Shown one piece after another: positions 377 to 22,096 of a DNA stretch of 36,459 nucleotides (position 1 is its first letter; the number at the start of each line of letters is the position of its first letter). The stretch is from Urinicoccus sp. (GTDB taxonomy: Bacteria > Bacillota > Clostridia > Tissierellales > Peptoniphilaceae): assembly GCA_029983435.1 (NCBI GenBank), contig JASBZN010000001.1, positions 1 to 36,459 on the forward strand, read 5' to 3'. The translations under genes were made by a program, and so were the position numbers. The notes under the pieces are model-generated. The model did no database searches and had not been told where the DNA came from. It saw only the letters and a program-made list of their open reading frames with translations.

Positions 377-407
377 CCACCAAAGGAAATTTTCTCTGAA
401 ATTTTCT

Positions 408-1373
408 TTACTTCTTGTAATCGTAGAAGCCCTTGCCAAAACTAGCGCCTTTTTCTCCCTTGTCGATTTTCTCCTTAACCATTTGGAGAATTTTGTAGTC
501 TAAAGAGTCGGGGTCTTGGGAAGAGGGTTTGTTTTGTTGAATATTATACACAGTATCTAGGCCCACGACATCAATAATTTGGAAGGGTCCAGCTGGTGCT
601 CCAGTAGCCAGTCGCCAAGTCATATCAATGGTTTCTGGATCCGCCACTCCCTTGGCCCAAAGGTGTTGGGCTGCATCTAAAAGAGGGACCAAAAGACTAT
701 TGAGCACATATCCCGGTTGTTCTTTATGGAGTTTAATGGGAATCATGTTAATTTCTTGGGCAAATTCCACTACGGTATCGTAGGTTTCTTGGGAAGTTCC
801 TGGATGTCCCATACATTCTGCTGTGTTGTGAGCCCAAATTTCATTGGCAAAATGAAGAGCCATGTATTTTTCTGGGCGGCCAGTGCTTTCTGCAAAGGTC
901 GAAGGTAAGAGGGTGGAAGAGTTCGTACAGAGGATGGTCTTTTCATCCAAGAAATCTCGGGCTTTTTCATAGAGGTCGATTTTGGCTTGGGGATCTTCCG
1001 CCATGGCTTCAATGGCAATATCTGCTCCCTTTAGGGCCTTTTCCATATCCAGCTCCAAGTGAAGATTTTCTTCCATATTTTTTTTACCCTTGGCTAGAAG
1101 GTCGTCGATATCTTCTTCTGTAAGTCCTTCCCACTTGGAGATCAGTCCCTTGGGATAAAGATAGGCTCCCATAGGGTTTTTTAAGAGCTTTTTAGATCCT
1201 TCCAAAGCTTGAAGGATCTTTTCTTTATAGGTTTTAATCTTAGGCTCCGTTCTACCAATGGATCCTTGGCTCCGAAGCCAAATAGTTGTATCATGACCTG
1301 TATAGGCACTCATTAAGGCAATTTGTGTTCCCAATACACCTCCGCCTAGTAAAACCACTTTTTTAAATTCCAT
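408..1373 (-). CDS. 3-hydroxyacyl-CoA (3-hydroxybutyryl-CoA-type) dehydrogenase family protein
   Basis: Rossmann GGGVLG, IEAMAE, TNSSTL, catalytic HFAN...AE, PGYVLNSLL, GPFQIIDVVGLD and C-terminal GKGFYDY. AGGAGG RBS. Confidence 0.9.
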   Translation of the reverse strand: MEFKKVVLLGGGVLGTQIALMSAYTGHDTTIWLRSQGSIGRTEPKIKTYKEKILQALEGSKKLLKNPMGAYLYPKGLISKWEGLTEEDIDDLLAKGKKNMEENLHLELDMEKALKGADIAIEAMAEDPQAKIDLYEKARDFLDEKTILCTNSSTLLPSTFAESTGRPEKYMALHFANEIWAHNTAECMGHPGTSQETYDTVVEFAQEINMIPIKLHKEQPGYVLNSLLVPLLDAAQHLWAKGVADPETIDMTWRLATGAPAGPFQIIDVVGLDTVYNIQQNKPSSQDPDSLDYKILQMVKEKIDKGEKGASFGKGFYDYKK

Positions 1374-1493
1374 TTTTTCCTCCTTATTTATCCATTTTAT
1401 CTATCATCTCGGCTTTAAGCCCTTTCGCTTTTATATGTACCCCAAAAATCCCATTTTAAAATCAAGAAAGGTCCGATTTTTTCCCTTCTCCAA

Positions 1494-1525
1494 TAAAAAA
1501 AGACGATCCTCTTCCATCGTCTTTT
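1494..1525 (-). terminator. Rho-independent terminator after the small membrane protein gene
   Basis: AAAAGACGAT...ATCGTCTTTT inverted repeat with a longer A-run on the left, immediately past the stop at 1533. Confidence 0.7.
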
Positions 1526-1532
1526 CCCGCTA

Positions 1533-1817
1533 CTATATGGACCTTAAGGCTTTATTGATCCCCTTTAAGAGCTTAATAAGAAGGGTCCCCACCAAGGGAA
1601 CCCCCAAAGGCCCTAAAAGAAAGGCCAGGATAAAAGCCCCTAGGGCTACAGAACCCATCCCATGAATAAAGGCAAAAAAGCCCACCACTAGGCATATCCC
1701 CATAAGGGTATAGAGGAAAATTTTCCCCAAGCCAAATAAAATACTTAACATTAGTGTAAGTAGACTTAAAAATAAATTAACTGGAAATAAAATTAGTTTA
1801 ACAAGTCCCCTTAGCAT
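1533..1817 (-). CDS. Small hydrophobic membrane protein, CD1845-family-like
   Basis: 94 aa, almost entirely hydrophobic. KLILFP...AFLLGPLGVP resembles the CD1845 family pattern (from memory). It has its own extended -10 and terminator. Confidence 0.65.
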   Translation of the reverse strand: MLRGLVKLILFPVNLFLSLLTLMLSILFGLGKIFLYTLMGICLVVGFFAFIHGMGSVALGAFILAFLLGPLGVPLVGTLLIKLLKGINKALRSI

Positions 1818-1854
1818 CTCAAACCCTTTCTACTTTTAATCCCTGTCTTTTTTC

Positions 1855-1863
1855 ATTATAGCA
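1855..1863 (-). promoter_or_regulatory. Extended -10 promoter element (TGCTATAAT)
   Basis: Reverse complement reads TGCTATAAT about 40 nt upstream of the ATG at 1817. Confidence 0.55.
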
Positions 1864-1950
1864 TGGAGGCCATAAAAAAGAAGAGATCTTCCTTAAATTA
1901 GAAACATCTCTTCCTTTTCTATACTTTTTCTTTACTTTTCAACAACTGCA

Positions 1951-3285
1951 TCAAGATGGTTCACTCATCAATTCTTCATCCGACTGTTCATCTCTATTTT
2001 TTTCAAAATCTTCATGGATGGCCTTTAATCTTTCTCGGTTCATTTCTGTATCCATGGCGTCTAGGCAAATTTTATAGACATAATCTAAATATTCTTTTAC
2101 CTGACCTTTTACACTTTTATCGGCAATCATATAAACCAGATATAACCCTTTAAGAATCCCTTCTGCCACCAAGGGATCCTCTTTTCCATAGTGGACAATT
2201 TGTACAAAGGAATTGTAGAGTTCCTCTTGGACAGTGTAGCCATTGTAGATAATTTTTGTTTGGTCATCTTCATCTAAGACAACATAAAAATTGTTTGTTG
2301 AAAAAAGTTTCCCTAACAACATCGAAATCTTTCCAATGCTGGTCCTAGCTGTATTGGGGTCGTTCACTCCCGGGCTTAAAGCCATTAGAGCAATTTCAAT
2401 TAAATTGGTCATTTCATGGTGGTAGTCTTTTACATCATTTTTACTGACATTGATGACTAGGCAATCCGCAAGTTTAGCTAAAAATTCTTTTTTCTCCTGA
2501 CCCTCTAAGCCTAGGTCTTCCATCATACGGAGCTTTGCTATATACATCCCCTTGGAAAGGTAGTCGCCAACTTTTCTTTCAACGACCACTTCCGACTTAA
2601 GGCCCTTTGCCTTTAGCTGAGCCAATAAATTTTTGCTGTCAACTTCATATAAATACCCCGTTTGGTTAGCAAAAATCTTAATTTCATCGACAGGTTGGCT
2701 GTTGACAAAGCGTTCCGATTCCTTCCTTAAATTGGCCTCTTCCTCTATAAGGTCAGAGGCATTATTATAGATTGTCTCAATAACATTGGCAACCTTTATA
2801 TCTTTAAGAACCCGCCGAACAAATAAAATAAAAGAAATCATGGCGGCAATGGCATAAAAAATAGCAATGGTTCCCGATATTAGAGGAATCTTTGAATCAA
2901 TATTTTGCACCATAAAAAGAGCCAGAACGGTGTAAAAAAAGCCACCAATAAAGACTCCAAAAAGGCTCAAGACATTGGGCTTGTCAATAAAGTCTTGCAC
3001 AATCCGAGGGGTAAAGGACCCAGAATATTTATTTAATACCGTCAGAATCGTGGTAAAGGTAAAAGTCGTAACGGTTAAAAACGTTCCAGTCAAGTTAGAT
3101 AAAAAGGAAGAAGTAACCTCTGAAGAAAGTAAGAGCACTTCTGGTAACTTGCTTTTTAGCTCTGGGTTTTGGTAGTCCAAAGACCAGGTAATAACTAGAA
3201 GAATTAAAGAAATAAGACTATACCTTGTAATTCTTATGATATTTCGATTGTTGTAATAGAATAATTTTATTTTACTTAACATCAT
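1951..3285 (-). CDS. DUF2254 family membrane protein
   Basis: N-terminal TM helices with LTVTTFTFT...YSGSFTPR, and the soluble-domain motif EIALMALSPGVNDPNTA. Confidence 0.85.
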   Translation of the reverse strand: MMLSKIKLFYYNNRNIIRITRYSLISLILLVITWSLDYQNPELKSKLPEVLLLSSEVTSSFLSNLTGTFLTVTTFTFTTILTVLNKYSGSFTPRIVQDFIDKPNVLSLFGVFIGGFFYTVLALFMVQNIDSKIPLISGTIAIFYAIAAMISFILFVRRVLKDIKVANVIETIYNNASDLIEEEANLRKESERFVNSQPVDEIKIFANQTGYLYEVDSKNLLAQLKAKGLKSEVVVERKVGDYLSKGMYIAKLRMMEDLGLEGQEKKEFLAKLADCLVINVSKNDVKDYHHEMTNLIEIALMALSPGVNDPNTARTSIGKISMLLGKLFSTNNFYVVLDEDDQTKIIYNGYTVQEELYNSFVQIVHYGKEDPLVAEGILKGLYLVYMIADKSVKGQVKEYLDYVYKICLDAMDTEMNRERLKAIHEDFEKNRDEQSDEELMSEPS

Positions 3286-3300
3286 TTCACCTTAAATTCT

Positions 3301-3309
3301 ATTTTACCA
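3301..3309 (-). promoter_or_regulatory. Extended -10 promoter element (TGGTAAAAT)
   Basis: Reverse complement TGGTAAAAT just upstream of the DUF2254 start region. Confidence 0.45.
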
Positions 3310-3359
3310 TAGAATCTTTCTGAAAAGAACTGCTAACTTACCTTCTCCTAGCTACATAC

Positions 3360-3384
3360 AAAAAAGGGAGGTCTCCCTCCCTTT
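3360..3384 (-). terminator. Rho-independent terminator
   Basis: AAAGGGAGG-TCTC-CCTCCCTTT hairpin with an A-run on +, 11 nt past the stop at 3396. Confidence 0.75.
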
Positions 3385-3395
3385 CGTTCAAAAAT

Positions 3396-4583
3396 TTATT
3401 TTTCAGCCCCTGGGCCAATATAAATTTCTACTAATTCCACAACTTTTTCTCCATCAAATTGAACCCAGAAGGGTGGTTTTAATTTCCGATTTTCCATTTC
3501 CTTTTTAAAGCTTTCATAGGAAACTTCATGAGCTGCTGTAACCATGCCCTTTTCTTCCCGAAGGTAAAATTTGCAATCCTTGTCCAAGTCAAAGGGAACT
3601 TCTTCTTCCTTTTCGTCATAAACATTAGCACCCCAAGCTGGACCTAGCATTAAGTCTGCCCGTCTTTTTATATTATTAATAGAAATAAACTCCCCAGGAT
3701 TCAGGTTAATTTTTCCTGCTTCCTTATCAATGGAGTTAATATAAGCCACATATTTTTCTGTTTCTTTTAAACCATCCACAAATTGAAGAGTGTGGAGGGC
3801 TTCTTTAAAGAGCATTTCCTTTTCTTTGTAGTCTTTTTCTGTCCCTTGGCTATAGGGAACATCCGAAGGATAATTGACTTCCGTGAAAAATCCCTTGTCA
3901 TACTTAAGAATATCTGTTGGGACAATCGCAGAAAAACTATAATTATAGGCCTTACCAATAGATGCGATTAATTCGTTCCGATCCTTGGTAAAAAACTCAT
4001 AGGCATTGTTTTCAATGTTAAAACGAGTGGCAATGGCATCATCAAAGCCTGCTGGTAAGTACATTCTGACACCAATTTCTGGATAGTCCCTCTTGGTCAT
4101 CTTGGCTAAGTCTTCTTCATTGACAGGTGGAAAAATATTTTCTCCAATTAAGACCATCCCCATGGGGCCATTCCATTCTACCTTTTGACCATAGGCTTCT
4201 GCTACTGTTCGAACAGGAATAAATATCCGATTATTTACAGCCTTGGCAGGAACATCCATGGTGACTTCTTTTGTAGCTTCCCCTTCTTGAACAGTTACCT
4301 TCTTATCCCCCAGGGTAAAAAGCAACTTTGTGGAAGCTTTTGTCAATTCCACTTGATTTTTTTCCGCCTTCCAATCTACCTTAAATTGTAAAGCTTCTGA
4401 CAGAGCCCGAACAGGAACCAAGGTCCTGGAATTTTCTGCAAAAGGTGCTACATCCGTAGGAATTAATCTTCCATTGACAACCAGTGAAATAGGCTTGTCC
4501 TGTCCATAAATGGGACTTGCCACAAGGACCAGACCCAGGAAGATAGACAGAAGGGTACCCATTCTTTGAAGTGATTTCTTCAT
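3396..4583 (-). CDS. Secreted protein with copper amine oxidase N-terminal (stalk) domain and an uncharacterised C-terminal region
   Basis: Signal peptide. DVAPFAENSRTLVPVRALSEAL..VDW and MDVPAKAVNNRIFIPVRTVAEAYGQKVEW are typical stalk-domain repeats. AGGAGG RBS. Confidence 0.85.
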   Translation of the reverse strand: MKKSLQRMGTLLSIFLGLVLVASPIYGQDKPISLVVNGRLIPTDVAPFAENSRTLVPVRALSEALQFKVDWKAEKNQVELTKASTKLLFTLGDKKVTVQEGEATKEVTMDVPAKAVNNRIFIPVRTVAEAYGQKVEWNGPMGMVLIGENIFPPVNEEDLAKMTKRDYPEIGVRMYLPAGFDDAIATRFNIENNAYEFFTKDRNELIASIGKAYNYSFSAIVPTDILKYDKGFFTEVNYPSDVPYSQGTEKDYKEKEMLFKEALHTLQFVDGLKETEKYVAYINSIDKEAGKINLNPGEFISINNIKRRADLMLGPAWGANVYDEKEEEVPFDLDKDCKFYLREEKGMVTAAHEVSYESFKKEMENRKLKPPFWVQFDGEKVVELVEIYIGPGAEK

Positions 4584-4761
4584 TTCTCTTCCTCCTTTTT
4601 ATTTTAAGACATTCTTTATGTCTGTTTTATACCCGCTTTAAACTTCCCTATTCAATTTTCCAAGCTTTTCTACTGCGATTTAACTATTACTCATTTTGTA
4701 CAAAAAACTATACTCATTCAAAGTTTTCCTGTCTAAGCTATGGACTAGTACGCGACACACT

Positions 4762-4803
4762 TAAAAAGCAGTCTTTAGACCTAAATCTAAAAACTGCTTT
4801 TTA
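4762..4803 (-). terminator. Terminator of the lysA-dapF-transporter operon (symmetrical, could act bidirectionally)
   Basis: TAAAAAGCAGT...ACTGCTTTTTA outer stem with an inner TTTAGA/TCTAAA stem. Confidence 0.8.
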
Positions 4804-4828
4804 TATCATATCCAAAAAGTCTTCTGAT

Positions 4829-6067
4829 TTATTTGTTCATCACCTTACTATTTAGCCAATTTTTTCCTTCAACAACTCTTGCTACGAGCATCGATGCAAT
4901 AGTATCTCCAGAAGAGTTAATCATTGTTGCAGGTGGATCAACTAAAAATCCAATCGTTGCTATTACAGGGAATGCTTCTGGTGGAAAACCGTATATATTG
5001 ACAATTAGCATTTCTCCAATTAGTCCTCCACCTGGAACCCCACTCATAACAACTCCACCTAATACAGAAATTAATATTGCCGTAATAAAGGTCCCCGCTC
5101 CAGTAAATTGCTGTCCAAAAACACCAAATAGAAACGAAATCTTCAATATAGAAGAAAGACAAGTTCCGTCCATATGCATTGTTGCTCCTAAAGGCATTAC
5201 AATTTCTCGAATATCTTGAGGAACCCCTATTTTCTTTGCCGATTCAAGATTTACGGGCATTGTTGCAATGGATGAACCTGTTGCAAAGGCAGTAATCGCT
5301 GGTGGTAAAATATTTTTAACCATTCTTCTAACAGCTTCTTTGCCTCCTGAAATATATGCATACGCAGGGAACATAATTACAAAATACAGCAAACATACAG
5401 GATAATAAATAACCATAGCTCTTAAGTAAGAACCTAATAGTTTAGGCCCAAATTCACCAATAAGAGATGCAAAGTAGGCACCCAATCCAATCGGAGCGTA
5501 TAGCATAACTATTCCAACTAATTTCATCATGACATCGCCTAAAGCATCTAATAAGGATGCAATTCTTTTATCTGGATCGTCAATATTCGCAACACAAATT
5601 CCAAATAGAATAGCAAAAATGATAAGTGGTAACATATTTTCTTTGGAAAATAATTCACTAAAATCATTAACAGTTAAAGCTTGTACAATTTGCTCCCCAA
5701 TAGAAACCTTCTCAACTGGATCGCCCATCGTTAAGGCAAGGTTAACGCCTTGTGCAGGCGGAAATGCTGTAACAACAATGATGATAATGACAGAGGCCAC
5801 TAAACCTGTCGCAACAAAAACTCCAAAAAGACCTCCCAATATTTTTCCCAATCTTTTCATGCTAACCATGTTGCCTACAGCACTTGCAATTGTAACAAAG
5901 ACTAAGGGCACCACTATAGTAAACATCAGGTTTATAAAGACATCTCCAAAAGGTTTTAAAACGGTTGCTTTTTCTCCCCATTTTAAACCAATAATACTTC
6001 CTATAATTATTGATAACAATAAAATTATTGGAAACCGATAGTTTTTTAAAGCATTTGTTTTTTTCAT
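4829..6067 (-). CDS. Dicarboxylate/amino acid:cation symporter (DAACS/SDF family)
   Basis: Multi-TM protein. PFGDVFINLM..IVVPLVF, AFATGSSIATMP (serine motif), PLGATMHMDGT (NMDGT-like) and DPPATMINSSGD. Confidence 0.9.
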   Translation of the reverse strand: MKKTNALKNYRFPIILLLSIIIGSIIGLKWGEKATVLKPFGDVFINLMFTIVVPLVFVTIASAVGNMVSMKRLGKILGGLFGVFVATGLVASVIIIIVVTAFPPAQGVNLALTMGDPVEKVSIGEQIVQALTVNDFSELFSKENMLPLIIFAILFGICVANIDDPDKRIASLLDALGDVMMKLVGIVMLYAPIGLGAYFASLIGEFGPKLLGSYLRAMVIYYPVCLLYFVIMFPAYAYISGGKEAVRRMVKNILPPAITAFATGSSIATMPVNLESAKKIGVPQDIREIVMPLGATMHMDGTCLSSILKISFLFGVFGQQFTGAGTFITAILISVLGGVVMSGVPGGGLIGEMLIVNIYGFPPEAFPVIATIGFLVDPPATMINSSGDTIASMLVARVVEGKNWLNSKVMNK

Positions 6068-6085
6068 TTTTTCTCTCCTTTTTCG

Positions 6086-6904
6086 TTAAATCTCTTGCTT
6101 AAAATCCCCTTTAAATACAAGCTCTGTCTTTCCAATCAAGGTAATGTCTCTTACTTCTTTTCCCTGTTTTTTAATTTTTACGAGCAATTCTCCCCCCTCT
6201 ACAAGATTCTTTAATGTAATTTCTCCATCATCTTGCGTTTTTAGATAACTTATGTCTACAGAGGATACTCCTGTTCCACAAGCTAAAGTAAAATCCTCTA
6301 CTCCGCGTTCAAATGTTTTGATTTTTAAAACGTTTTCTTTAATATAATATAAATTTACGTTTGTTCCTTTGGGAAAAAACGGGTCGTGCCTAATCGTTTT
6401 TGCCAACCTATACTGCTCCTCTGGATGCATTTCCTCAAAGTTTATTTTATAGACAAAGTGAGGAACCCCAGGTTCTCCCAATTCTATATAATCGCCCGAT
6501 ATCTTACCATCCAGCACTTTCACATTGTACTTCTCTACCGATGGAAGATTAATCTTAACAGAATAAATATTATCCCGAACAAAAGATGTTTTAACATCCC
6601 CTGCTAAGGTCTCTAACACTGCTTGGGGAAGATTTAATTCTTCATGGGCAAACCGGGCTAGGCACCTTGCTCCATTTCCACACATTTCACCTCGGGTTCC
6701 ATCTGCGTTATAAAACTCCATTTTTATGTCACAGGTCTCTAATTCGCTCTTTCCCATGATAATTAATCCATCTGCTCCAACACCTAATCTTCGATTGCAT
6801 ATCTTCTGAGCAAATTCTTTTTTATTTTCTATGTTTAAACGACCTGTATAATTATTAATTAAGACAAAATCATTCCCGCATCCGTGCATTTTTGTAAACT
6901 TCAT
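6086..6904 (-). CDS. dapF: Diaminopimelate epimerase
   Basis: KMHGCGNDF, GVGADG, catalytic EMCGNGARC and ERGVEDFTLACGTG, GVPHFV, GTNVN. Confidence 0.95.
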   Translation of the reverse strand: MKFTKMHGCGNDFVLINNYTGRLNIENKKEFAQKICNRRLGVGADGLIIMGKSELETCDIKMEFYNADGTRGEMCGNGARCLARFAHEELNLPQAVLETLAGDVKTSFVRDNIYSVKINLPSVEKYNVKVLDGKISGDYIELGEPGVPHFVYKINFEEMHPEEQYRLAKTIRHDPFFPKGTNVNLYYIKENVLKIKTFERGVEDFTLACGTGVSSVDISYLKTQDDGEITLKNLVEGGELLVKIKKQGKEVRDITLIGKTELVFKGDFKQEI

Positions 6905-6905
6905 T

Positions 6906-8177
6906 TTAAACCTCTAAATCATCCATTATTAATTCTTCCAAGGACTGTCTTTTAACAACTAATTTGTGTTCTTTCCCTTCTACAAAAACCACAGCTGGTT
7001 TTAATAACTGATTATAATTACTAGACATGGAATAACCATACGCTCCTGTCGACCTTATAAGAATTAAGTCTCCTGTTCTTACTTCTGGCAGCTCAATATC
7101 TTCTCGAATAATATCTCCTGACTCACAACACTTTCCACAGATCGTAATTACTTCTTTTTTTTCACTTTCAACACAGTTGGCAACAACTCCGTCATATTTC
7201 GCTCCATATAGAGCTGGCCGAATATTATCTGTCATCCCCCCATCTATTGAAACATATTTTCGAACGCCTTCAATATTTTTAATTGATCCAACTGTATACA
7301 AAGTATAACCTGCTTCACCAACAATGCTACGACCAGGTTCAATTGTAACAACAGGGCGTTCCTTTTTAAAATGATTAAAAATTTCATCAATTTTATTCAT
7401 GATTGGATCTAAAAAATAAGAAAAAGATTTTCTTTCTTCATCTGTATAATTAATTCCAAAACCGCCACCTACATTTAACTCTTTAATTTCATCACATATT
7501 TCATAAGTTTCTTTCAAAAGAGGAGTGATATTGTTTAAAGCATTGACATATGGTTGGCTTTCAAATAACTGGCTCCCAATATGAAAATGATATCCTATAA
7601 ATTCTAGATAAGGTTCATCTGAAACTTTTTTCACTTGTTCCAATACTTCATCTAATGGAAATCCAAACTTAGTATCCTCTTTTGCTGTCGTAATATATTT
7701 ATGGGTATGCACCTCGACGCCAGGTGTTACGCGGAAAAGTAAATTTATTTTTCTTCGATATTTATGGGACAAATCGATTAAGTACTCTAGCTCTTCTTCT
7801 CCATCCACAATAATCTTCCCAACATTATTTTTTACTGCCATTTCCAGCTCTTCATATAATTTATTATTTCCATTAAATTCAATCCGAGAAGGATCAAAAC
7901 CAGCTTGTAGTGCAGTATATAACTCTCCCCCACTTACTACATCTAAGTTCAAACCTTCTTTCTCAATAAATTGACACATTGCTTTACAAATAAAAGCTTT
8001 CGACGCATACGAAATAATGGTATTGGGATATTTACTAGTGAACGCTTTTTTTAATTCATTTATTGTTTTTTTCATTTGTCCAACTGAATAAACATATAAA
8101 GGAGTGCCGTAGTGTTTTTTTAGATCAAGACAACAAACGTCTTCAATATAAGCTTTGTTTTCTCTTATTTTAATCAT
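6906..8177 (-). CDS. lysA: Diaminopimelate decarboxylase
   Basis: YGTPLYVY, PLP lysine in YASKAF, DVVSGGEL, HFHIGSQ, EPGRSIV, DGGMTDNIRPALY, CESGD and GAYGYSMSSNYN. Its stop is 1 nt from the dapF ATG, consistent with translational coupling. Confidence 0.95.
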   Translation of the reverse strand: MIKIRENKAYIEDVCCLDLKKHYGTPLYVYSVGQMKKTINELKKAFTSKYPNTIISYASKAFICKAMCQFIEKEGLNLDVVSGGELYTALQAGFDPSRIEFNGNNKLYEELEMAVKNNVGKIIVDGEEELEYLIDLSHKYRRKINLLFRVTPGVEVHTHKYITTAKEDTKFGFPLDEVLEQVKKVSDEPYLEFIGYHFHIGSQLFESQPYVNALNNITPLLKETYEICDEIKELNVGGGFGINYTDEERKSFSYFLDPIMNKIDEIFNHFKKERPVVTIEPGRSIVGEAGYTLYTVGSIKNIEGVRKYVSIDGGMTDNIRPALYGAKYDGVVANCVESEKKEVITICGKCCESGDIIREDIELPEVRTGDLILIRSTGAYGYSMSSNYNQLLKPAVVFVEGKEHKLVVKRQSLEELIMDDLEV

Positions 8178-8198
8178 AAAAGTTTCCCTTTCTACATT

Positions 8199-8214
8199 TT
8201 CCTATTAACGGGAA
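8199..8214. promoter_or_regulatory. Palindromic box 1, TTCC-N8-GGAA (candidate operator)
   Basis: TTCCTATTAACGGGAA in the lysA 5' UTR. The same pattern recurs at 8306-8321. Confidence 0.45.
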
Positions 8215-8247
8215 TTTAATCCCCGTTAATTCCCGTTCTTTTTCTTT

Positions 8248-8276
8248 ATTATAAGCCTAAATTTTTCACCCTTCAA
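8248..8276 (-). promoter_or_regulatory. Sigma70-type promoter of the lysA operon
   Basis: Reverse complement TTGAAG-17 nt-TATAAT. Confidence 0.7.
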
Positions 8277-8305
8277 TGCCTTTTCCTATTTTTTATACTT
8301 TATTT

Positions 8306-8321
8306 TTCCCATTTTCAGGAA
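8306..8321. promoter_or_regulatory. Palindromic box 2, TTCC-N8-GGAA (candidate operator)
   Basis: TTCCCATTTTCAGGAA, located between the two divergent -35 elements. Confidence 0.45.
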
Positions 8322-8328
8322 TACGGCG

Positions 8329-8357
8329 TTGCTATTTCTTTTATTCCTTTATATAAT
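8329..8357 (+). promoter_or_regulatory. Sigma70-type promoter of the regulator gene
   Basis: TTGCTA-17 nt-TATAAT, followed by an AAGGAG RBS and the ATG at 8393. Confidence 0.7.
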
Positions 8358-8392
8358 AGATTTATAAATTCTATCCACAGAAAGGAGTTACT

Positions 8393-10228
8393 ATGGCTTT
8401 TCAAATAAATCATTTACTAGATTCTATTTTAAATAACACAAATGAAGGCTTTATAGCTATTGATTGTGATGGACGTATAAAGCTTTATAATAAAAAAGCC
8501 AAGGAGCTTTTCGGTATCGATTCTACAGCTCAAGTAGACCATCCAGAGGGAAAACTAAAAACGGGAGATTTAGTTATTATTGCAGATACTGGCATCGGAG
8601 AGGATGATGGGAATTTAGATTATAGTTCTTTGGAAGCCATTGGCATCTATGACAATTCTATAAAGCATGGCGACCCTTTTGTTGCTGTTGGCGCTTATAA
8701 AGAAGCGAAAATAAAATCCCAATATAAAATTTTTGATTCTAATTCTAATTTAAAGAATTTTTCTTTTCACTCTTTTTTCCAAGGAGAAGAAATTAATGTG
8801 TCAATAAATACAGCGAAAAAAAGAGTAAATATTGAAGTTTTAGGCGATAATTACTATATGGATTATTTCCATTCTATTGGTCATATGGTTGTTTTAGACG
8901 CAAATAATCACTCCCTTAAATTTTCTCAAGATAATGGTTACACCGCCCGCCATGAGAGTGTACAAGAAATTTTAAATGGAGTTCATTTCAGAGGAAAAGG
9001 AAAGTATCGCTCAAACTTAGATGTCATTAACCAATTTATTTATGATATTCATGCGAAATCAAAAATTATAGAACAATTCTTAGATGTTGCACATGGCAAA
9101 GATATTCAATTTAAAAATCGCTTTGAAGAAATTAACGGATTCCCAACTTTATGTAGCCTCTTTCCAGTTCGAGATAAAAATTCAGAGGTCACTGCCGTTT
9201 TAAAAATAGACGATATTTCTGAAATTAACAAAATTATTGAGGAACGAAATTTTCTCTCTCAAGAATTAAATGCTACAACGAATATGGTCAGAAACATCCC
9301 TCCTGTTCGAAAGATTTTCCCCTCTATATCTGGAAACAGTTTGCCCATGCAAAGCGTTAAAAAAATGGCTTGGTTTGCTTCTAAAAATGACCAGCCTATT
9401 TTAATACTAGGTCCATCTGGAGTTGGGAAAACTAATTTAGCAAGAAACATTCATGGAATTAGCAAAAATAAAAACAAACCTTTTGTCCATATTCATTGTG
9501 AAAAAAATATAATTTCCTCTATGGATAGTTTACTGTATGGTACAAAAGATGACCTGCTTTTTATAGGAGCTTTTGAAAGTTGTAAAGGCGGCACCCTTTA
9601 CATTAGTAATATTGATATTCTCCCTCTAAACCAACAGTCCAAATTATATGAAACCATCAAAAATGGATTTTTTTATAGAAATAAAGATCCTAAAAGGATC
9701 CAATTCAATGGACGTCTTTTCTTTTCTTCTACAAAAAATTTAGAAACAGAAGTTGAGGAAGGGCGATTTGATCAAAAGCTATACAACTATATTCAATCTT
9801 TCCAAATCTGGATACCTCCTCTTGCTTATAGAAAAGAAGACATTTTAAGTCTTACAAGGGATTTAACAGAGGATCTTTGCCGAGAATTTGGATTGGATAC
9901 GAAACACTTTACAAAAGAAGCTTTAGATTTATTAGTTCAAAATCCTTTGAAAAACAATGTGAAAGAACTAAAAAATTTGTTAAAAGAAACAATTTTAAAT
10001 ACTCCTGGCAAAAACATTACTCCCGACAATTTAAAGCTTTCTTCCAACGATAAATTTATGGACGCTCCTCCTCATATGACAATGAAAGAATTTTTAGAAA
10101 ACCAAGAAAAACTTATTTTAATAAAAACTCTATCTTTCTATAAAGGTAATAAAAAAGAAGCCATGGCTCATCTAGATATGACCAAAACTACTTTTTATAA
10201 TAAATTAAATAAATATGGACTAAGTTAA
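8393..10228 (+). CDS. NtrC/TyrR-like transcriptional regulator (PAS-like N-terminus, degenerate sigma54-activator AAA+ domain, Fis-type HTH)
   Basis: ILNNTNEGFIAIDCDGRIKLYNKKAKELFG (PAS start), ISGNSLPMQSVK, Walker A GPSGVGKT, PFVHIHC, IWIPPLAYRKEDI and C-terminal GNKKEAMAHLDMTKTTFYNKLNKYGL HTH. Confidence 0.85.
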   Translation: MAFQINHLLDSILNNTNEGFIAIDCDGRIKLYNKKAKELFGIDSTAQVDHPEGKLKTGDLVIIADTGIGEDDGNLDYSSLEAIGIYDNSIKHGDPFVAVGAYKEAKIKSQYKIFDSNSNLKNFSFHSFFQGEEINVSINTAKKRVNIEVLGDNYYMDYFHSIGHMVVLDANNHSLKFSQDNGYTARHESVQEILNGVHFRGKGKYRSNLDVINQFIYDIHAKSKIIEQFLDVAHGKDIQFKNRFEEINGFPTLCSLFPVRDKNSEVTAVLKIDDISEINKIIEERNFLSQELNATTNMVRNIPPVRKIFPSISGNSLPMQSVKKMAWFASKNDQPILILGPSGVGKTNLARNIHGISKNKNKPFVHIHCEKNIISSMDSLLYGTKDDLLFIGAFESCKGGTLYISNIDILPLNQQSKLYETIKNGFFYRNKDPKRIQFNGRLFFSSTKNLETEVEEGRFDQKLYNYIQSFQIWIPPLAYRKEDILSLTRDLTEDLCREFGLDTKHFTKEALDLLVQNPLKNNVKELKNLLKETILNTPGKNITPDNLKLSSNDKFMDAPPHMTMKEFLENQEKLILIKTLSFYKGNKKEAMAHLDMTKTTFYNKLNKYGLS

Positions 10229-10388
10229 TCAGGGCACATCGTATTTCAATGGCAAGATTAATCCATCTCTACTTTTTTAAGCACTTAAAATAAGTCCCTC
10301 TTTTTATCTTCCTCAGTCAATTTTTATTTTCTATTTGAATGGAATTCACTATTTTTTTGTCTGTTTTTCCGTCATTTCAGCCTAGGTG

Positions 10389-10397
10389 TGATATAAT
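10389..10397 (+). promoter_or_regulatory. Extended -10 promoter element (TGATATAAT)
   Basis: TGATATAAT about 42 nt upstream of the TetR start. Confidence 0.55.
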
Positions 10398-10439
10398 GAA
10401 AGCGTATGCTAAATTATTCTATACAAATTAGGGGGGTAT

Positions 10440-10982
10440 ATGGCAAATTATACGCAAGACCTCATCATGGAAACTTTTGAAAATATGTTGGACCGCATGC
10501 CTTTTGATAAAATCACGGTAACGGCTCTTATCAAGGAATGTAATATTGGGCGAAACACTTTCTATTACCACTATGATGATATCTATGCTCTTCTTGATGA
10601 AGCCCTTATCCAATGGTTAGGGGACTATTTAGATACAACTCCAGAAGAAAATTGGCAGGAAAATTTTAAAACTATCCTGTATTTTTGCCGAGCCAATAAG
10701 AAAAAAATCTATCATATTTTTAATTCTCTTTCTCGTGATCAACTTGCTCATTATGTTTCAGATCGAACGAATTATTCTATTTCTTCTTATATTCAAAGTT
10801 CCACTAAAATCCCCAGAGATAATTCGGAACGGGCAAAGGCCATTGGTCAAATCATTGGCTATACTCTTTGTGGCTACTTTATTCGATTTTTATGGAATGA
10901 TATGGAAGTCGATATTGATGCGGATATGGACAGGTTAGGTCTTATTTTTGATGAGCTTTTAGAGGGGCTGGAAAAGGAATAA
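10440..10982 (+). CDS. TetR/AcrR family transcriptional regulator
   Basis: HTH PFDKITVTALIKECNIGRNTFYYHYDDIYALL; 180 aa. Confidence 0.92.
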   Translation: MANYTQDLIMETFENMLDRMPFDKITVTALIKECNIGRNTFYYHYDDIYALLDEALIQWLGDYLDTTPEENWQENFKTILYFCRANKKKIYHIFNSLSRDQLAHYVSDRTNYSISSYIQSSTKIPRDNSERAKAIGQIIGYTLCGYFIRFLWNDMEVDIDADMDRLGLIFDELLEGLEKE

Positions 10983-11144
10983 TTGGTACACTCTTCTTAA
11001 AGTGTTCAAAATAGGACATTGTTTTACTTCCGTATAATTTAAGACAGGGCTCTTTTTTTGACCCTGCAAAAGTAGAGTTCTATATTATACAATAGAATTA
11101 ATTATAGGCTAAGAATAGTAACCAGGACCTAAGGAGGTTTTTGA

Positions 11145-12503
11145 ATGAATGTTTCAGCTACACTTGCTAAGCATGGTTTAACCAAGGCGTTTGACCATCT
11201 TTATAAAGACCCAGAAAATAATCTTCCTAAAATTATGAATTGGGCAGATAAATTTTCAAAAGGTCATTTTGAAGGACAACGGAAGGCGATTCGAAAAGCC
11301 ATTGAGGATCCAAACGATCCTTACTATCCTTTCGTTCGTCACGTTGTTCAAGATATTGACCCAGAAGTAATGAAGACTGTTGCCGCTAATTTCTTTATTA
11401 ATTCCAACCTAGTCAGCGGTCCTCTCCAAGAAAAATTACGAGAAAAATACAATTGTAATATTCCTTGGACCATTTTATTGGACCCAACTTCTGCTTGTAA
11501 CTTGCAATGTACTGGTTGTTGGGCAGCTGAGTACGGAAACAAATTAAATCTTACTTATGACGAAATTGACGACATCATCTGTCAAGGAAAAGAACTCGGC
11601 GTTTATTTCTATATCTATACTGGTGGGGAACCTCTTGTTCGCAAGGACGACATTCTCCGTCTTTGTGAAAAACACGATGACTGTGTCTTTATGAGTTTTA
11701 CCAACGGTACCTTAATTGACGAAGACTTTGCCAACGAAATGCTTCGAGTTAAAAACTTTATTCCATCTATTTCTTTGGAAGGTTTTGAAGAAGCAACAGA
11801 TTCCAGACGAGGCAATGGTGTATACGAAAAAGCCTTAAATGCTATGAAGCTTCTCCACGATAAGAGACTTCTTTATGGTGTTTCTTGCTGCTACACTAGC
11901 CAAAACTACGATTCCATTACTTCTGAAGATTATTGGGATATGATGATTGATAATGGTGCTTACTTTGTTTGGTACTTCCATTATATGCCTGTTGGAAATG
12001 ATGCAAGTCCTGAATTAATGCCAACTCCTGAACAAAGAGAAGTCGTTTTTCGTCGGATTCGAGACTACAGATCTCGCAAACCACTCTTTGCCATGGACTT
12101 CCAAAACGATGCAGAATATATTGGTGGCTGTATTGCCGGTGGTCGGAACTATCTTCATATCAATGCTAACGGAGATGCTGACCCTTGTGTATTTATCCAC
12201 TATTCCGACTCCAACATTCGCGAAAAGAGCTTGTTAGAAGTTCTTCGTTCTCCTTTATTTATGGCTTACCATGACGGGCAACCCTTTAACGACAACATGT
12301 TAAGACCTTGTCCTATGTTGGAAAACCCAGATAAATTAAGGGATATGGTTAAGAAAACTGGAGCGAAATCGACAGATATGCAATCTCCAGAAAGTGTAGA
12401 CCACTTATGCGATAAATGTGTATCTTACTCTGACAACTGGACTCCCAAGGCCCATGAACTTTGGGAAGAAAGAAAAGAACAAAAAGCCAGCCAACAATCC
12501 TGA
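11145..12503 (+). CDS. Radical SAM protein with C-terminal SPASM/Twitch-type auxiliary Fe-S domain
   Basis: CxxxCxxC (CNLQCTGC), TGGEPL, FTNGTLI, ISLEG, then GCIAGGRNYLHINANGDADPC...PCP...LCDKC. AAGGAGG RBS. Confidence 0.92.
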   Translation: MNVSATLAKHGLTKAFDHLYKDPENNLPKIMNWADKFSKGHFEGQRKAIRKAIEDPNDPYYPFVRHVVQDIDPEVMKTVAANFFINSNLVSGPLQEKLREKYNCNIPWTILLDPTSACNLQCTGCWAAEYGNKLNLTYDEIDDIICQGKELGVYFYIYTGGEPLVRKDDILRLCEKHDDCVFMSFTNGTLIDEDFANEMLRVKNFIPSISLEGFEEATDSRRGNGVYEKALNAMKLLHDKRLLYGVSCCYTSQNYDSITSEDYWDMMIDNGAYFVWYFHYMPVGNDASPELMPTPEQREVVFRRIRDYRSRKPLFAMDFQNDAEYIGGCIAGGRNYLHINANGDADPCVFIHYSDSNIREKSLLEVLRSPLFMAYHDGQPFNDNMLRPCPMLENPDKLRDMVKKTGAKSTDMQSPESVDHLCDKCVSYSDNWTPKAHELWEERKEQKASQQS

Positions 12504-12521
12504 GTTTAAGATGACTTTATA

Positions 12522-12570
12522 AAGAAATCCATTGTCTTGATTTTCTTCAAGACAATGGATTTTTCTTTTT
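12522..12570. terminator. Bidirectional terminator between convergent genes
   Basis: 16-bp stem AAATCCATTGTCTTGA / TCAAGACAATGGATTT with a T-rich tail on + and an A-rich left flank. Confidence 0.85.
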
Positions 12571-12618
12571 CGTCAATTTAAAAATTTAACCCTTGCTAGG
12601 TTTCTGCTGCAAGCATCT

Positions 12619-13479
12619 TTATGCCAGCAGATAATCATTAATCGTATGAAGATATTTTTCAGGCAGGATGCTGACGCCTCCCTTGCAGGAAAAGCCTTTG
12701 ATGGGCTCAACTTTGTCCCCAATTTTTAAGCAGGCCTCTTTATTTTTAATATCAACAACTTTATCCCCCAGAGAAATCCGAGTCAAGTTTTCTTCTCCTT
12801 TCCATTCTACTGTTGCTCCCAAGGCCTCAAAATATTTCCGAAGATAAATCCCCTTACTTTTAGAATCCCTGTAGTTTTCTATGTCAACTACTGGATTCTT
12901 TTTATCTAAGATAAAAATTTTATAGGGTTTTGCAATGGGCGGAATACTTCGTGTGGCTTCGCGATAGAGAACGGCTAAATCTTTATTTAGAAAATCTTTC
13001 TCTAGTCTTCCCTCTTTATTTTTAGCTACTGTATCCTGGCCTATCTCCATTTTTAAACGGTTGGAAATCCCCTGTCCCTTTTTGTTAAAAAAATCCACAT
13101 CCAAAGAGTAGCTTGCTTCATCCACATGAACAGCAATCCAGTCTGGTGTCATTTTCGCTGGTAGAGATGTTAGAACAGGAGTGTCTTGCCTATAAAAATA
13201 TTGAATCTTTTCTCCCTTTTTAAAAGAATAGTTTTCCAACAATTCTCCACTAGACAAATCCAGAACAGGAACTTTAGCTGTGTATAAAAAGAGTTCCTCC
13301 TCTAGACCCTTTCCAGCTCGTTCGTTTTTTACGAGAATTTCTGAATTTTGTCCTTCTGTAGCGACTTCTTCTATTTTTCCATAACATTGATCATACCCAA
13401 TCCCTTTTTCATCCTTTGCAAAAAGGGCCTCACTGGAAATCAGAACGAGGGCAAGGGTACAAATAAGTAATTTTTTCAT
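12619..13479 (-). CDS. Secreted hypothetical protein with C-terminal stalk-like (copper amine oxidase N-terminal-like) segment
   Basis: Signal peptide MKKLLICTLALVLISSEALFA. Two repeats of TSLPA/TRSIPP type. C-terminal IYLRKYFEALGATVEW. AAGGAG RBS. Confidence 0.7.
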   Translation of the reverse strand: MKKLLICTLALVLISSEALFAKDEKGIGYDQCYGKIEEVATEGQNSEILVKNERAGKGLEEELFLYTAKVPVLDLSSGELLENYSFKKGEKIQYFYRQDTPVLTSLPAKMTPDWIAVHVDEASYSLDVDFFNKKGQGISNRLKMEIGQDTVAKNKEGRLEKDFLNKDLAVLYREATRSIPPIAKPYKIFILDKKNPVVDIENYRDSKSKGIYLRKYFEALGATVEWKGEENLTRISLGDKVVDIKNKEACLKIGDKVEPIKGFSCKGGVSILPEKYLHTINDYLLA

Positions 13480-13567
13480 CTTTTCTTCTCCTTTCTCTTG
13501 TGAAGGTCTATTGTCAAAGAAGGGCCCGCCTTTTGGAGCCCTCCTTTTTCAATTTTCATCTGTTCTT

Positions 13568-15733: not shown

Positions 15734-16368
15734 GGCAATACAATCTCCTTTCCATTGATTTCTAAAAGCTGGGTTTCCCCCTGATAGCGAATCCACCCAG
15801 GCTTTTCTTCCAAAAGCGGTTTTTCCTCTAGAGGCTTACTGAGATAGTCTCGACTAATGTGAAAATTTAAATAGTGGTAGGCAGCCAAAAAATATTGACC
15901 CGCCTTCCTCTCTACTGATAAAATCTCCTCTCGTCCATCTTTGTCGATATCATAGAGAGTAAAGTCTTCCATGGGCAAACTGAGCCGAGAAGCTCGAAAC
16001 TTGGCCTTTAGCTCTCCATTTTCTATGTTGTAAAGAAAGGGCCGCCGAGCCATTACCTGGTGGTGGGGGGCTTTTTTATAAACCCCTAGGGCAATTTCTA
16101 CTTGGCCATCTCCGTCTACATCCCCTAGGCAAAACTTCCAAATATTGAGAGCATTTTTCCCTTGAAATTTTTTCCATGTGGACTTTTGTCCCCTTCGAAT
16201 TTCTATTGTATTTCCATACTTAGAAAAGGCCTTGCGGTAAAGAACTAGCGTTACCTTTCCCTCCTTGGGAAGGGAAATTGTCTCTTCTAAAACCTTTATT
16301 TGAATTTGAGAGATTCCCAAGCAAAGAACCAAGATGAGGGCCAAAAAGACCAGAAGTTTTCCTTTCAA
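15730..16368 (-). CDS. Membrane-anchored/exported hypothetical protein with two DxDxDG calcium-binding-type motifs (start probably TTG at 16368)
   Basis: N-terminal hydrophobic helix KGKLLVFLALILVLCLG; GDVDGDGQVE and YDIDKDGREE. AAAGGGGA RBS precedes the TTG. The ORF-track start at 16416 lies inside a terminator. Confidence 0.75.
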   Translation of the reverse strand: MKGKLLVFLALILVLCLGISQIQIKVLEETISLPKEGKVTLVLYRKAFSKYGNTIEIRRGQKSTWKKFQGKNALNIWKFCLGDVDGDGQVEIALGVYKKAPHHQVMARRPFLYNIENGELKAKFRASRLSLPMEDFTLYDIDKDGREEILSVERKAGQYFLAAYHYLNFHISRDYLSKPLEEKPLLEEKPGWIRYQGETQLLEINGKEIVLP

Positions 16369-16401
16369 AAAAAGTCCCCTTTCTTGCTTTATTATACCCT
16401 G

Positions 16402-16432
16402 AAAAATAGGAGCCAAACCAGCTGGCTCCTAT
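16402..16432 (-). terminator. Terminator of the osmoprotectant ABC transporter operon
   Basis: ATAGGAGCCA-7 nt-TGGCTCCTAT with an A-run on the left. Confidence 0.8.
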
Positions 16433-16441
16433 AGTTCTTGC

Positions 16442-16535
16442 TTTTTATCAGGACTACACAGGATAGCTCCTACTTTTTGATTCGAACCATACAGGATAGC
16501 CTTTTTTGATTTGAACTACACAGGGTAACCCCTGC
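16442..16535. repeat. Three imperfect tandem direct repeats of about 30 bp
   Basis: TTTTTATCAGGACTACACAGGATAGCTCCTAC / TTTTTGATTCGAACCATACAGGATAGCCT / TTTTTGATTTGAACTACACAGGGTAACCCCTGC. Confidence 0.8.
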
Positions 16536-16553
16536 TGCTTAATCCTCTTTTTC

Positions 16554-18071: not shown

Positions 18072-18804
18072 TCTTTAGCTCCTTTTCCTGGTTAAAAAAT
18101 TCCCTGACAAAGGTGTTTTCGGGATTTTCAATCATTTCCTTTGGACTGGCAATTTGTACGACTTTCCCCTCTTTCATGATACAAATCCGATCTGCCAGTT
18201 TTAAGGCTTCATCCATATCATGGGTAACAAAGACAGTGGTTATCTTATAGTCCTGGTGGATTTTTTTAATTAAATCCTGGAGCTGAGCCTTACTAATGGG
18301 GTCCAAGGCAGAGAATGGTTCATCCATTAAAAGGACTTCTGGGTCTCCTGCAATGGCCCGAAGAATACCAATCCTTTGTTTTTCTCCTCCAGAAAGGTCT
18401 TTTGGTAGTCTCTTGCGATATTTTTTCGGATCTAAACCCACTTGGTCCAAGAGGCGATCTGTCCTTTGACTGATTTCCCTTTTATCCATTTTTTTCATTT
18501 CAGGAATCAAGGCAATATTTTCAGCTACTGTGAGATTTGGAAAAAGAGCAATTTGCTGTAAAACGTAGCCCATATTAAGTCGCAACTGCCGAAGAGGATA
18601 GTCTTTTATTTTCTTTCCCCTAAACAAAATATCTCCTTCTGTTTGTTCAATAAGTCGATTCATAAGCTTAAGACTCGTTGTTTTCCCACTTCCACTGGGA
18701 CCTACCATGACAAAAAACTCTCCGTCTTCAATTTCAAAATTTAATTTATCGAGTACTTTTCCACTGCCTGGATAGGCCATGGATACATTTTTATAAATAA
18801 TCAT
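18064..18804 (-). CDS. Osmoprotectant ABC transporter ATP-binding subunit (start revised to 18804)
   Basis: Walker [20 protein letters not shown], signature LSGGEKQR, Walker [26 protein letters not shown] before MIIYKNVSM. Confidence 0.92.
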
Positions 18805-18957
18805 CGAAATCTCCTTTACTTGACAAGTTATAGGTCCCTTCTTTCCTTCTTCTCTCCTATAAGCAACATTTTTTATCACTTGTTTTAAAATAGATACCCT
18901 TTTTTAAACAGTCTATCCACCTACATCGTCTTTATCCCTCATCCAAGTTTTTCTTAT

Positions 18958-19004
18958 AAAAAAGAGCTCCCCCCTTAGCCTGAACAGGCTCTAGCTTGAA
19001 GCTC
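18958..19004 (-). terminator. Probable terminator of the activase operon
   Basis: Outer GAGCT/AGCTC and inner AGCCTG/CAGGCT stems with an A-run on the left. Confidence 0.5.
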
Positions 19005-19047
19005 CATTTAAAAAATTTCCTATCCAATTATTTTCTTCTGCATTTTT

Positions 19048-20004: not shown

Positions 20005-20033
20005 TTATTTTTACTCTTCCCCTCACTCATTCT

Positions 20034-22014: not shown

Positions 22015-22096
22015 CTCTACTCCCATCACTCCATCTTTCCATACAAATCTTAAAACAAACTCTTTTCAGATGGATAAATTTATTCCTATTCTCTTT

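Follow-up and report, generated by a model that had tools for sequence, protein, structure and literature searches.

A candidate module for diaminopimelate utilisation, with its own carrier and regulator, in a species of a lysine-auxotrophic Peptoniphilaceae genus

The first 36,459 nucleotides of contig JASBZN010000001.1 from Urinicoccus sp. (assembly GCA_029983435.1), the whole of which is referred to here as the window, carry a minus-strand operon of lysA, dapF and a gene for a DAACS-family symporter, together with a divergently transcribed regulator gene (Table 1). We read these four genes as a self-contained module for the utilisation of diaminopimelate (DAP), gained by one species, a gut-type anaerobe, within a Peptoniphilaceae genus that is auxotrophic for lysine, and we give this reading a probability of about 0.6. 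The gene content, the linkage, the missing upstream genes in the assembled part of the genome and the regulatory motifs are direct observations. The route that we infer from them, which extends to what the transporter carries, which way the flux runs and what the regulator senses, would be as follows. The symporter would import free LL- and meso-DAP from the peptidoglycan of other bacteria. Bis-amino acids isosteric with DAP, lanthionine or cystine for example, would probably enter in the same way. DapF would convert LL-DAP into meso-DAP, LysA would decarboxylate meso-DAP to L-lysine, and the lysine would enter protein synthesis, probably a lysine-type wall, and lysine fermentation. The operon would be controlled by the PAS-AAA+-HTH protein through TTCC-N8-GGAA sites; in relatives this regulator is a true sigma-54 activator, and here the loop that contacts sigma-54 and the ATPase motif have been lost and the promoter is now of the sigma-A type.

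The order of lysA, dapF and the transporter gene, head to tail on the minus strand, was confirmed from the list of open reading frames (ORFs), and reading of the junctions agrees with the gaps of 1 nt and 18 nt given in an earlier note on this DNA. The lysA/dapF junction is TAA-A-ATG and the dapF/transporter junction is TAA-18 nt-ATG, each with a ribosome-binding site (AAGGAGAG at the second). The same note had assigned the operon one promoter and one terminator. For the terminator, a 19-bp stem followed by U5 (about 4803-4762) folds with a free energy of -24 kcal/mol (z -4.94). A simple terminator scan listed no site 3' of the transporter gene, and the hairpin was seen by folding instead. For the promoter, TTGAAG-17-TATAAT is the best minus-strand match (10/12) and predicts a leader of about 64 nt. 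Promoter-like matches in the whole region numbered 20, against 16.5 +/- 4.3 in shuffled sequences, which is not above chance, and the single operon promoter therefore stands only as a consensus prediction. Within the leader, a TTCC-N8-GGAA site (8199-8214) overlaps a perfect 10-bp inverted repeat (8207-8216 / 8228-8237), and the corresponding RNA hairpin folds at -16.4 kcal/mol (z -3.06). The statement that the untranslated leader is only about 65 nt long and not of the lysine-riboswitch type holds up, as no Rfam family, the lysine riboswitch included, reached its gathering score in the window or in eight related loci. Profile searches likewise bore out the claim that lysC, asd, dapA and dapB are not found in the window.

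Both enzymes are assigned at the level of protein function models. LysA scores 453.8 bits against TIGR01048 over residues 6-420, well beyond the equivalog cut-off of 297.9, and DapF scores 190.3 bits against TIGR00652, also beyond its equivalog cut-off (114.65). DapF has the two catalytic cysteines, C75 and C209, which are invariant in the alignment (A1) along with N11, N66, N77, E199 and R200, and lysA and dapF are each single-copy in the organism's own assembly. Seventeen PDB entries match DapF at E<=1e-5, and 16 of the 17, the best one included, are named DAP epimerase. DapF proteins encoded beside the transporter nevertheless differ from other DapF, with scores of 190-222 rather than 226-298 bits, and form a distinct subgroup with the motif ERGVEDFT(L)ACGTG.

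The steps that lead to meso-DAP were sought in the organism's own genome and in its genus. The own genome is a 1.2-Mb metagenome-assembled genome (MAG) in 169 contigs, 73.9% complete, and the same-genus comparison comprised three genomes that are 98-100% complete. In the MAG, dapA, dapB and Ddh gave no profile match, the best score for a DapL-type aminotransferase was 58 bits (cut-off 364.7), and tblastn with DapA, DapB and Ddh of Anaerosphaera aminiphila returned nothing at E<=1e-5. An asd gene is present and is followed by a homoserine dehydrogenase gene (hom), that is, by the threonine/methionine branch. All three same-genus genomes gave no dapA, dapB, lysA or dapF and no ddh, and their best matches to the transporter, at 28-30% identity, do not amount to an orthologue. 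A genome check for dapA, dapB, dapL and ddh had been proposed in the earlier note, with absence taken to favour scavenging, and that is how it came out, for all four in the assembled part of the MAG and for dapA, dapB and ddh in the three genus genomes. The presence of LysA, with the steps to meso-DAP not found in a 73.9%-complete assembly or in the genus, would correspond, if those steps are truly lacking, to variant A1 of the published DAP-salvage scheme (PMC9026213).

The module itself has the appearance of an insertion. The 5.9 kb at window positions 4524-10438 has no DNA counterpart in the three same-genus genomes, and the flanks of this island match genome G001 at places about 700 kb apart (window 406-4523 = G001:C3:409774-413923; window 10439-20000 = G001:C3:1109480-1117759). 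A genus without a lysine pathway and an island of this content together argue that what this species gained was just the two final enzymes with a carrier and a regulator.

The association of the three genes recurs far outside the genus. Among 60 relatives scanned, a transporter at least 54% identical was found in only five. Anaerosphaera aminiphila (G017) and G055 have the order lysA-dapF-transporter, and G057 has M20 amidohydrolase - LD-carboxypeptidase - dapF - transporter. In G032 and G053 the transporter is accompanied by a PatB-family C-S lyase, and in G032 also by an enzyme of the D-cysteine-desulfhydrase (DCyD) family. A scan of public genomes then yielded 56 transporter loci, with neighbours called by tblastn at E<=1e-15 and at least half of the query covered. 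In 24 of the 56, drawn from two phyla, the transporter adjoins lysA and/or dapF: 16 loci have both, three lysA only and five dapF only; of these five, one is divergent and two are truncated where the contig ends. At equal flank size, lysA or dapF was found in none of the 10 loci whose transporter is less than 52% identical. One more locus, L099, has a match of just 22 residues. Carriers belong to Anaerosphaera, Aminipila, Anaerovorax, Sedimentibacter, Oscillospiraceae, Lachnospiraceae, Clostridiaceae, Peptostreptococcaceae and Synergistota (Acetomicrobium, Synergistaceae). Across 238 Peptoniphilaceae genomes, DapF occurs in four (this organism, G017, G173 and G174) and a transporter orthologue in 15, and in all four cases dapF lies directly upstream of the transporter gene, with the proviso that related genomes are not independent and these counts overstate the number of events. 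It is clear that dapF is coupled to this carrier, and a gene linkage that recurs in 24 of 56 related loci is far beyond chance. The synteny survey suggested in the earlier note has in this way revealed a widely conserved arrangement of the transporter with dapF and lysA, with the regulator as part of the unit.

Relatives that can make DAP for themselves are particularly informative about the role of the epimerase. Synthesis through Ddh ends in meso-DAP without an epimerase step. DapF is missing from most Peptoniphilaceae that have dapA, dapB and lysA. In G017 and G055, which have a dapA-dapB-ddh cluster (Ddh 442 and 446 bits), the sole dapF and the sole lysA are with the transporter. The tie of the epimerase to the carrier, although synthesis can do without it, would be accounted for by import that includes the LL isomer. 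An independent argument comes from G057, a 98%-complete genome with no dapA, dapB, ddh or lysA, whose only DAP gene lies between the LD-carboxypeptidase and the transporter. Its MurE (552 bits) has the DNPR motif, which we take to be the mark of a DAP-adding enzyme, and with no genes for DAP synthesis the organism would therefore need external DAP.

The transporter is a member of the DAACS family by its match to PF00375 (SDF; 328.8 bits against a gathering score of 27.9, residues 16-397), and no NCBIfam equivalog claims it; its scores with the DctA, SstT and GltP models are 98-125 bits, where 308-638 would be required. Among solved structures it comes closest to aspartate transporters, with 200 bits for 9bgz and about 140 bits for GltPh. 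An AlphaFold 2 model (pLDDT 83.3, pTM 0.82) searched with Foldseek gave TM-scores of 0.70 to the aspartate transporter 9bh0 and 0.66-0.68 to GltPh, that is, a GltPh-like fold. The same protein, at 99-100% identity, is recorded from further contigs (P0001-P0003). Transmembrane helix 8 reads VDPPATMINSSGD and includes the motif VDPPATMIN. In what we take to be the numbering and residue roles of GltPh, the transporter keeps the equivalents of D394, T398, N401 and D405, and so shares with GltPh, GltTk and the EAAT proteins both the fold and these four positions. It differs from them at R397, presumably the ligand of the substrate's side-chain carboxylate, where the query and all 55 clade members have Ala, as against Arg in five and His in two of seven outgroup carriers. 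The Arg in helix 8 that characterises carriers of acidic amino acids and C4-dicarboxylates (GltP, GltPh, DctA) is accordingly missing. The clade core also has HMDG in place of the family's NMDG, with the His in transmembrane helix 7, and a Glu in hairpin 2 (GVPGGGLIGE). The alpha-amino and alpha-carboxyl ligands are thus retained and the Arg for an acidic side chain is lost. The Ala disfavours aspartate, glutamate and dicarboxylates, and together with HMDG it makes an acidic substrate unlikely. Judged from these residues, the pocket would be compatible with an uncharged or zwitterionic side chain such as those of DAP, lanthionine and cystine, but also with small neutral amino acids. The transporter is not the cystine symporter TcyP/YdjN under another name, since its alignment with E. 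coli K-12 TcyP covers 306 of 412 residues at no more than 27% identity (77 bits).

The partners of the transporter in other genomes bear on how wide its substrate range may be. A PatB-family C-S lyase adjoins it in 14 of the 56 loci and a DCyD-family enzyme in nine, often in one operon with the DAP genes (PatB-lysA-dapF-transporter, lysA-dapF-DCyD-transporter), and an LD-carboxypeptidase adjoins it in one Leptotrichia locus. In L039:9361-10356, L044, L052, L056, L058 and L064, the gene for the DCyD-family enzyme, which depends on pyridoxal phosphate (TIGR01275; 329 bits for the G017 copy), either immediately precedes lysA or separates dapF from the transporter gene, and one idea is that the enzyme cleaves the D-centre of meso-lanthionine. 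In a Synergistaceae MAG (L053:7118-9298) the transporter gene is followed by one for a 726-aa homologue of AmpH-like DD-carboxypeptidase/endopeptidase, another peptidoglycan-related neighbour. Transporter loci without DAP or sulfur partners, which include neighbours such as proBA, arginine deiminase genes and the AmpH-like peptidase, showed no further pattern. In the organism studied here, tblastn found only PatB hits of 20-27% identity and none for DCyD among the PatB, DCyD and LdcA partners sought; with no PatB or DCyD orthologue, only the DAP branch would operate in this organism.

Several observations count against DAP scavenging by this operon, or against DAP as the only cargo. A dapA-dapB-ddh locus could sit in the unassembled part of the 73.9%-complete MAG. 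The operon is not restricted to auxotrophs, since in G017 and G055 it stands beside a full de novo route and there also takes part in ordinary biosynthesis. G173 and G174 have the order regulator-dapF-transporter with no lysA, an arrangement that fits a supply of DAP for another purpose or a different substrate. Fusobacterium nucleatum has a 'DapF' that is in fact a histidine racemase, HisR (PMC11602996), so that membership of the DapF family, as read from sequence, is no proof of DAP epimerase activity. That the changes in the binding site suit DAP is conjecture based on aligned residues, and database names of the transporter's relatives are all generic. Transporters 54-67% identical to the one in the window adjoin PatB or DCyD, sometimes without dapF or lysA. 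Finally, a tree of 62 carriers (three sequences, being partial, were left out, and another three loci had given no full-length transporter ORF) shows sulfur contexts interspersed among DAP contexts, which makes it unlikely that DAP alone is carried. What these contexts most simply have in common is the class of bis-amino acids, to which DAP and its thia-analogue lanthionine belong, as do cystathionine and cystine. The earlier note's proposal of DAP scavenging to lysine consequently survives in qualified form, supported by each of the in silico checks that it called for in the organism's own genome and tempered by the completeness of the MAG and by the two relatives with a de novo route. Its description of the symporter as a candidate dedicated DAP importer was too narrow, given clade members beside C-S lyases, DCyD-like enzymes and an LD-carboxypeptidase.

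The most serious alternative is that the transporter serves sulfur-containing bis-amino acids (cystine, lanthionine, cystathionine) and not DAP, and that dapF and lysA are linked to it through co-regulation of genes for scavenging cell walls or amino acids, with no substrate in common. In addition to the PatB and DCyD counts just given, it can draw on G032, where a sulfonate-type ABC system, the transporter, DCyD and PatB lie together, and on G053, with an enhancer-binding protein, the transporter and PatB. Fusobacterial and Leptotrichia genomes, from a group with lanthionine walls, have transporter orthologues that are 64-68% identical. The F. nucleatum wall contains lanthionine, and external lanthionine rescues this organism (PMC11602996); a lanthionine importer must therefore exist there. 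In the present genome, where the only co-transcribed enzymes act on DAP and no orthologue of PatB or DCyD was found, this explanation has little to work with, and it also sits poorly with the Peptoniphilaceae, whose DapF occurs only next to this transporter, and with G057, which apparently needs external DAP. Moreover, the two kinds of substrate do not exclude each other: a cystine uptake system of E. coli, whose ABC cystine importer is encoded with dcyD, is shared with and inhibited by DAP (PMC4383340). We consider a sulfur-only role unlikely, while leaving it some weight.

A second alternative is ordinary terminal lysine biosynthesis, with the upstream genes in the unassembled 26% of the genome and a transporter that moves something unrelated in or out of the cell, for instance lysine or a small neutral amino acid (serine, threonine, alanine). 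The 73.9% completeness leaves room for it, the coexistence of the operon with dapA-dapB-ddh in G017 and G055 gives it a precedent, and Ala at the Arg position is also found in neutral-amino-acid carriers (compare the PDB title 'GltPh R397C in complex with L-cysteine'). Set against these points, the whole pathway is missing from all three near-complete genus genomes and only a four-gene island has been added, DapF is useless for the Ddh route and yet travels strictly with the transporter, an unrelated transporter would not remain linked across two phyla, and control is by an activator with no lysine riboswitch. Taken together, these make the biosynthetic explanation improbable. Least probable, and in our view a long shot, is that the DapF-like protein is a racemase or epimerase for some other imported amino acid, akin to histidine racemase or to a lanthionine epimerase, and that the transporter carries that compound: the low scores and separate motif subgroup of the transporter-linked DapF proteins, the lysA-less G173 and G174 and the HisR precedent (PMC11602996) can be cited for it, but DapF exceeds its equivalog cut-off with the E-R pair and the Asn residues conserved, a bona fide lysA usually stands directly before or after dapF, and 16 of the 17 PDB matches are DAP epimerases. 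The HisR entries 9CR1 and 9CR6 are not among these 17 matches at E<=1e-5, and a HisR-type identity for the DapF of the window is unlikely, not being supported by its PDB neighbours.

The regulation of the operon is consistent with a catabolic role in relatives and has an unusual form here. The divergent regulator gene encodes PAS - AAA+ - Fis-HTH by Pfam, the AAA+ domain with only 92.5 bits. In alignment, its GAFTGA motif is deleted and SN stands in place of the acidic Walker B pair DE; relatives keep both. The GAFTGA loop and the acidic pair are also lost in the regulators of G173 and G174 (L113:6072-7877, L114:2824-4593), so that degenerate forms occur in three Peptoniphilaceae genomes altogether, and orthologues in other families are intact. 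In the same three genomes the promoter of the target operon is of the sigma-A type and not of the -24/-12 type. No rpoN was found in the MAG or in the complete G001, and the sigma-54 pattern TGGCA-N7-TGC is absent from the window's intergenic region, even when relaxed. A GGCA...GTGA stretch in the window was considered by eye as a sigma-54 promoter and fails at the -12 GC. None of the marks of a bacterial enhancer-binding protein system (GAFTGA, Walker B, -24/-12 promoter, rpoN) was thus found for the window, and the regulator, to judge from its sequence, probably derives from that family and works without sigma-54.

By contrast with the window, 10 of the 19 lysA-bearing loci show the canonical promoter pattern TGGCA-N7-TGC(A/T), placed 55-222 nt ahead of lysA. 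Variants were also seen: the L066 promoter ends in G, the L050 match lies 1.6 kb upstream, and in G053 a sigma-54 promoter drives transporter - PatB. In G055 (L040:2670-9245) such a promoter drives a longer operon in which genes for a PRK09061-like amidohydrolase and a carrier of the NhaC family precede lysA, dapF and the transporter gene, with a homologue of the EamA-type cysteine/O-acetylserine exporter nearby. Control of the operon in relatives is activator-dependent and inducible, as in clostridial catabolic operons, and is not lysine repression. The TTCC-N8-GGAA consensus, which was read by eye, has only two copies in the 36-kb window (1.48 expected), both within the 215-nt intergenic region, and sites resembling it precede the operon in Anaerovorax, Aminipila, G173 and G174; this pairing, together with its recurrence in relatives, ties the regulator to the operon. 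In E. coli, lysA is activated by LysR in a DAP-dependent manner. By analogy, DAP is the obvious guess for the effector of the regulator.

The lysine produced would have uses in this organism. The earlier note had suggested biosynthesis or fermentation, and genes for lysine fermentation are indeed present on contig C65 of the MAG (L106:33-6589): kamA, cut by the contig end (the part present scores 291 bits to lysine 2,3-aminomutase), kamB, kamC, kamD (903 bits) and kamE (396 bits). This kamA-kamE set argues that the organism ferments lysine, and DAP could be both a source of lysine for growth and a substrate for fermentation. The MurE-like ligase of the genus and of G017 has no DNPR motif, from which DAP is probably unneeded for the organism's own wall and lysine is the likely goal. 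This ligase type (L104 = G000:C53, the copy in the present MAG; L103, L105, L111) scores 242-260 bits, about the family cut-off, and has an unusual C-terminal region; G057 has both this DNPR-less type and a canonical MurE with DNPR.

Several known systems resemble parts of this one. The recycling of peptidoglycan peptides (LdcA, and MppA/Opp for murein tripeptide) likewise reuses DAP derived from the wall, and LdcA is found beside the transporter in G057 and in the Leptotrichia locus. Murein peptide recycling imports peptides through ABC systems. Here, by contrast, a carrier of the amino acid type is implied, and the product would be lysine. In E. coli, the FliY-YecSC (TcyJLN) ABC system and the DAACS member TcyP/YdjN likewise take up bis-amino acids, with a long-known overlap between cystine and DAP (PMC4383340). 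The association of that cystine locus with dcyD has its counterpart in the nine DCyD-bearing loci of the present clade. The present transporter differs from FliY-YecSC in being a secondary carrier, not an ABC system, and in having its gene in one transcription unit with dapF and lysA; TcyP, likewise of the DAACS family, falls in a different clade at 27% identity. The relatives resemble the clostridial operons under sigma-54 and enhancer-binding proteins (PrdR; Nie et al. 2019, PMC6615313) in having a PAS-AAA+-HTH activator by a -24/-12 promoter, whereas in the window the activator is degenerate and the promoter of the sigma-A type. The main text of that reconstruction of the Clostridiales sigma-54 regulon contains none of the terms lysA, dapF, diaminopimelate, lysine or cystine.

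The salvage of DAP by genomes that have only LysA is in print already as a proposal: Ashniev et al. 2022 listed 14 of 2856 human gut genomes with LysA and no steps to meso-DAP, and proposed DAP salvage for them (PMC9026213). The idea is the same, and the main text of that study is without a transporter, DapF coupling or a regulator; these elements appear to be new here. Searches of the open-access literature found no carrier assigned to DAP beyond the E. coli cystine systems, older subscription literature lying outside the scope. For this DAACS clade, whose genes go together with those of DapF and LysA and with a regulon of the PAS-enhancer-binding-protein kind, a new class of substrate is predicted.

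The remainder of the window holds features of other kinds. Positions 13306-16474 are 94% identical to G003, of the same genus, and the neighbouring DNA is 68-85% identical to G001; its two ORFs, of 742 aa (13568-15796) and 228 aa, gave no NCBIfam hit at E<=1e-15, and the segment may represent an element that was exchanged recently. Within 19048-22029, an acyl-CoA dehydratase activase (199 bits) is followed by two ORFs, again with no NCBIfam hit at E<=1e-15, which are probably 2-hydroxyacyl-CoA dehydratase subunits of amino-acid fermentation. A 2126-aa ORF (22391-28771) with a Listeria-Bacteroides repeat and an SLH domain is presumably a giant cell-surface protein. It is followed by genes for a Cna_B-domain protein (29236-32142) and a HerA-like ATPase (32663-34201), and by a large-subunit catalase gene that runs off the end of the window (34594-36459), in an organism otherwise like a strict anaerobe.

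Table 1. Coordinates of the operon, its signals and the surrounding island in the window
Feature	Position	Strand	Basis
lysA, meso-diaminopimelate decarboxylase	6906..8177	-	TIGR01048
dapF, diaminopimelate epimerase, divergent subgroup	6086..6904	-	TIGR00652, catalytic residues
DAACS/SDF symporter, clade without name, candidate importer of DAP and look-alike bis-amino acids	4829..6067	-	PF00375, context
Intrinsic terminator 3' of the transporter gene	4762..4803	-	folding
Leader element, candidate regulator site and/or RNA hairpin	8199..8237	-	motif, repeat, folding
Sigma-A-type promoter TTGAAG-17-TATAAT	8248..8276	-	consensus match
Second TTCC-N8-GGAA site, upstream of the -35 box	8306..8321	-	pattern search
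Divergent regulator, PAS + degenerate AAA+ + Fis-type HTH	8393..10228	+	Pfam domains
Species-specific island: transporter, dapF, lysA, regulator	4524..10438	.	no DNA match in same genus

A broader proposal can be put forward tentatively, with the odds somewhat against it: that the DAACS clade marked by VDPPAT and HMDG is the long-missing secondary importer of meso-type bis-amino acids derived from cell walls, placed in a widespread regulon of PAS-type enhancer-binding proteins, sigma-54 and TTCC-N8-GGAA sites with a varying set of DapF, LysA, PatB, DCyD-like and LD-carboxypeptidase partners, in amino-acid-fermenting anaerobes of the Bacillota, Synergistota and Fusobacteriota that use peptidoglycan from dead neighbours as food or as material to rebuild their own walls. 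If so, these carriers would take LL- and meso-DAP, lanthionine and perhaps cystine and cystathionine, and would provide the sole source of DAP-derived lysine in some lineages, this one included, and the sole source of wall DAP in others such as G057. The module also illustrates an enhancer-binding protein turned into a sigma-54-independent regulator, together with a promoter swap. Few amino acids specific to bacteria are as abundant as DAP in guts, sediments and digesters, and a DAP importer would sharpen genome-based predictions of auxotrophy and cross-feeding and offer a handle on the recycling of necromass (peptidoglycan) and on the supply of DAP and lanthionine to organisms that do not make them. 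A named importer and regulator for DAP would explain how lysine-auxotrophic anaerobes persist.

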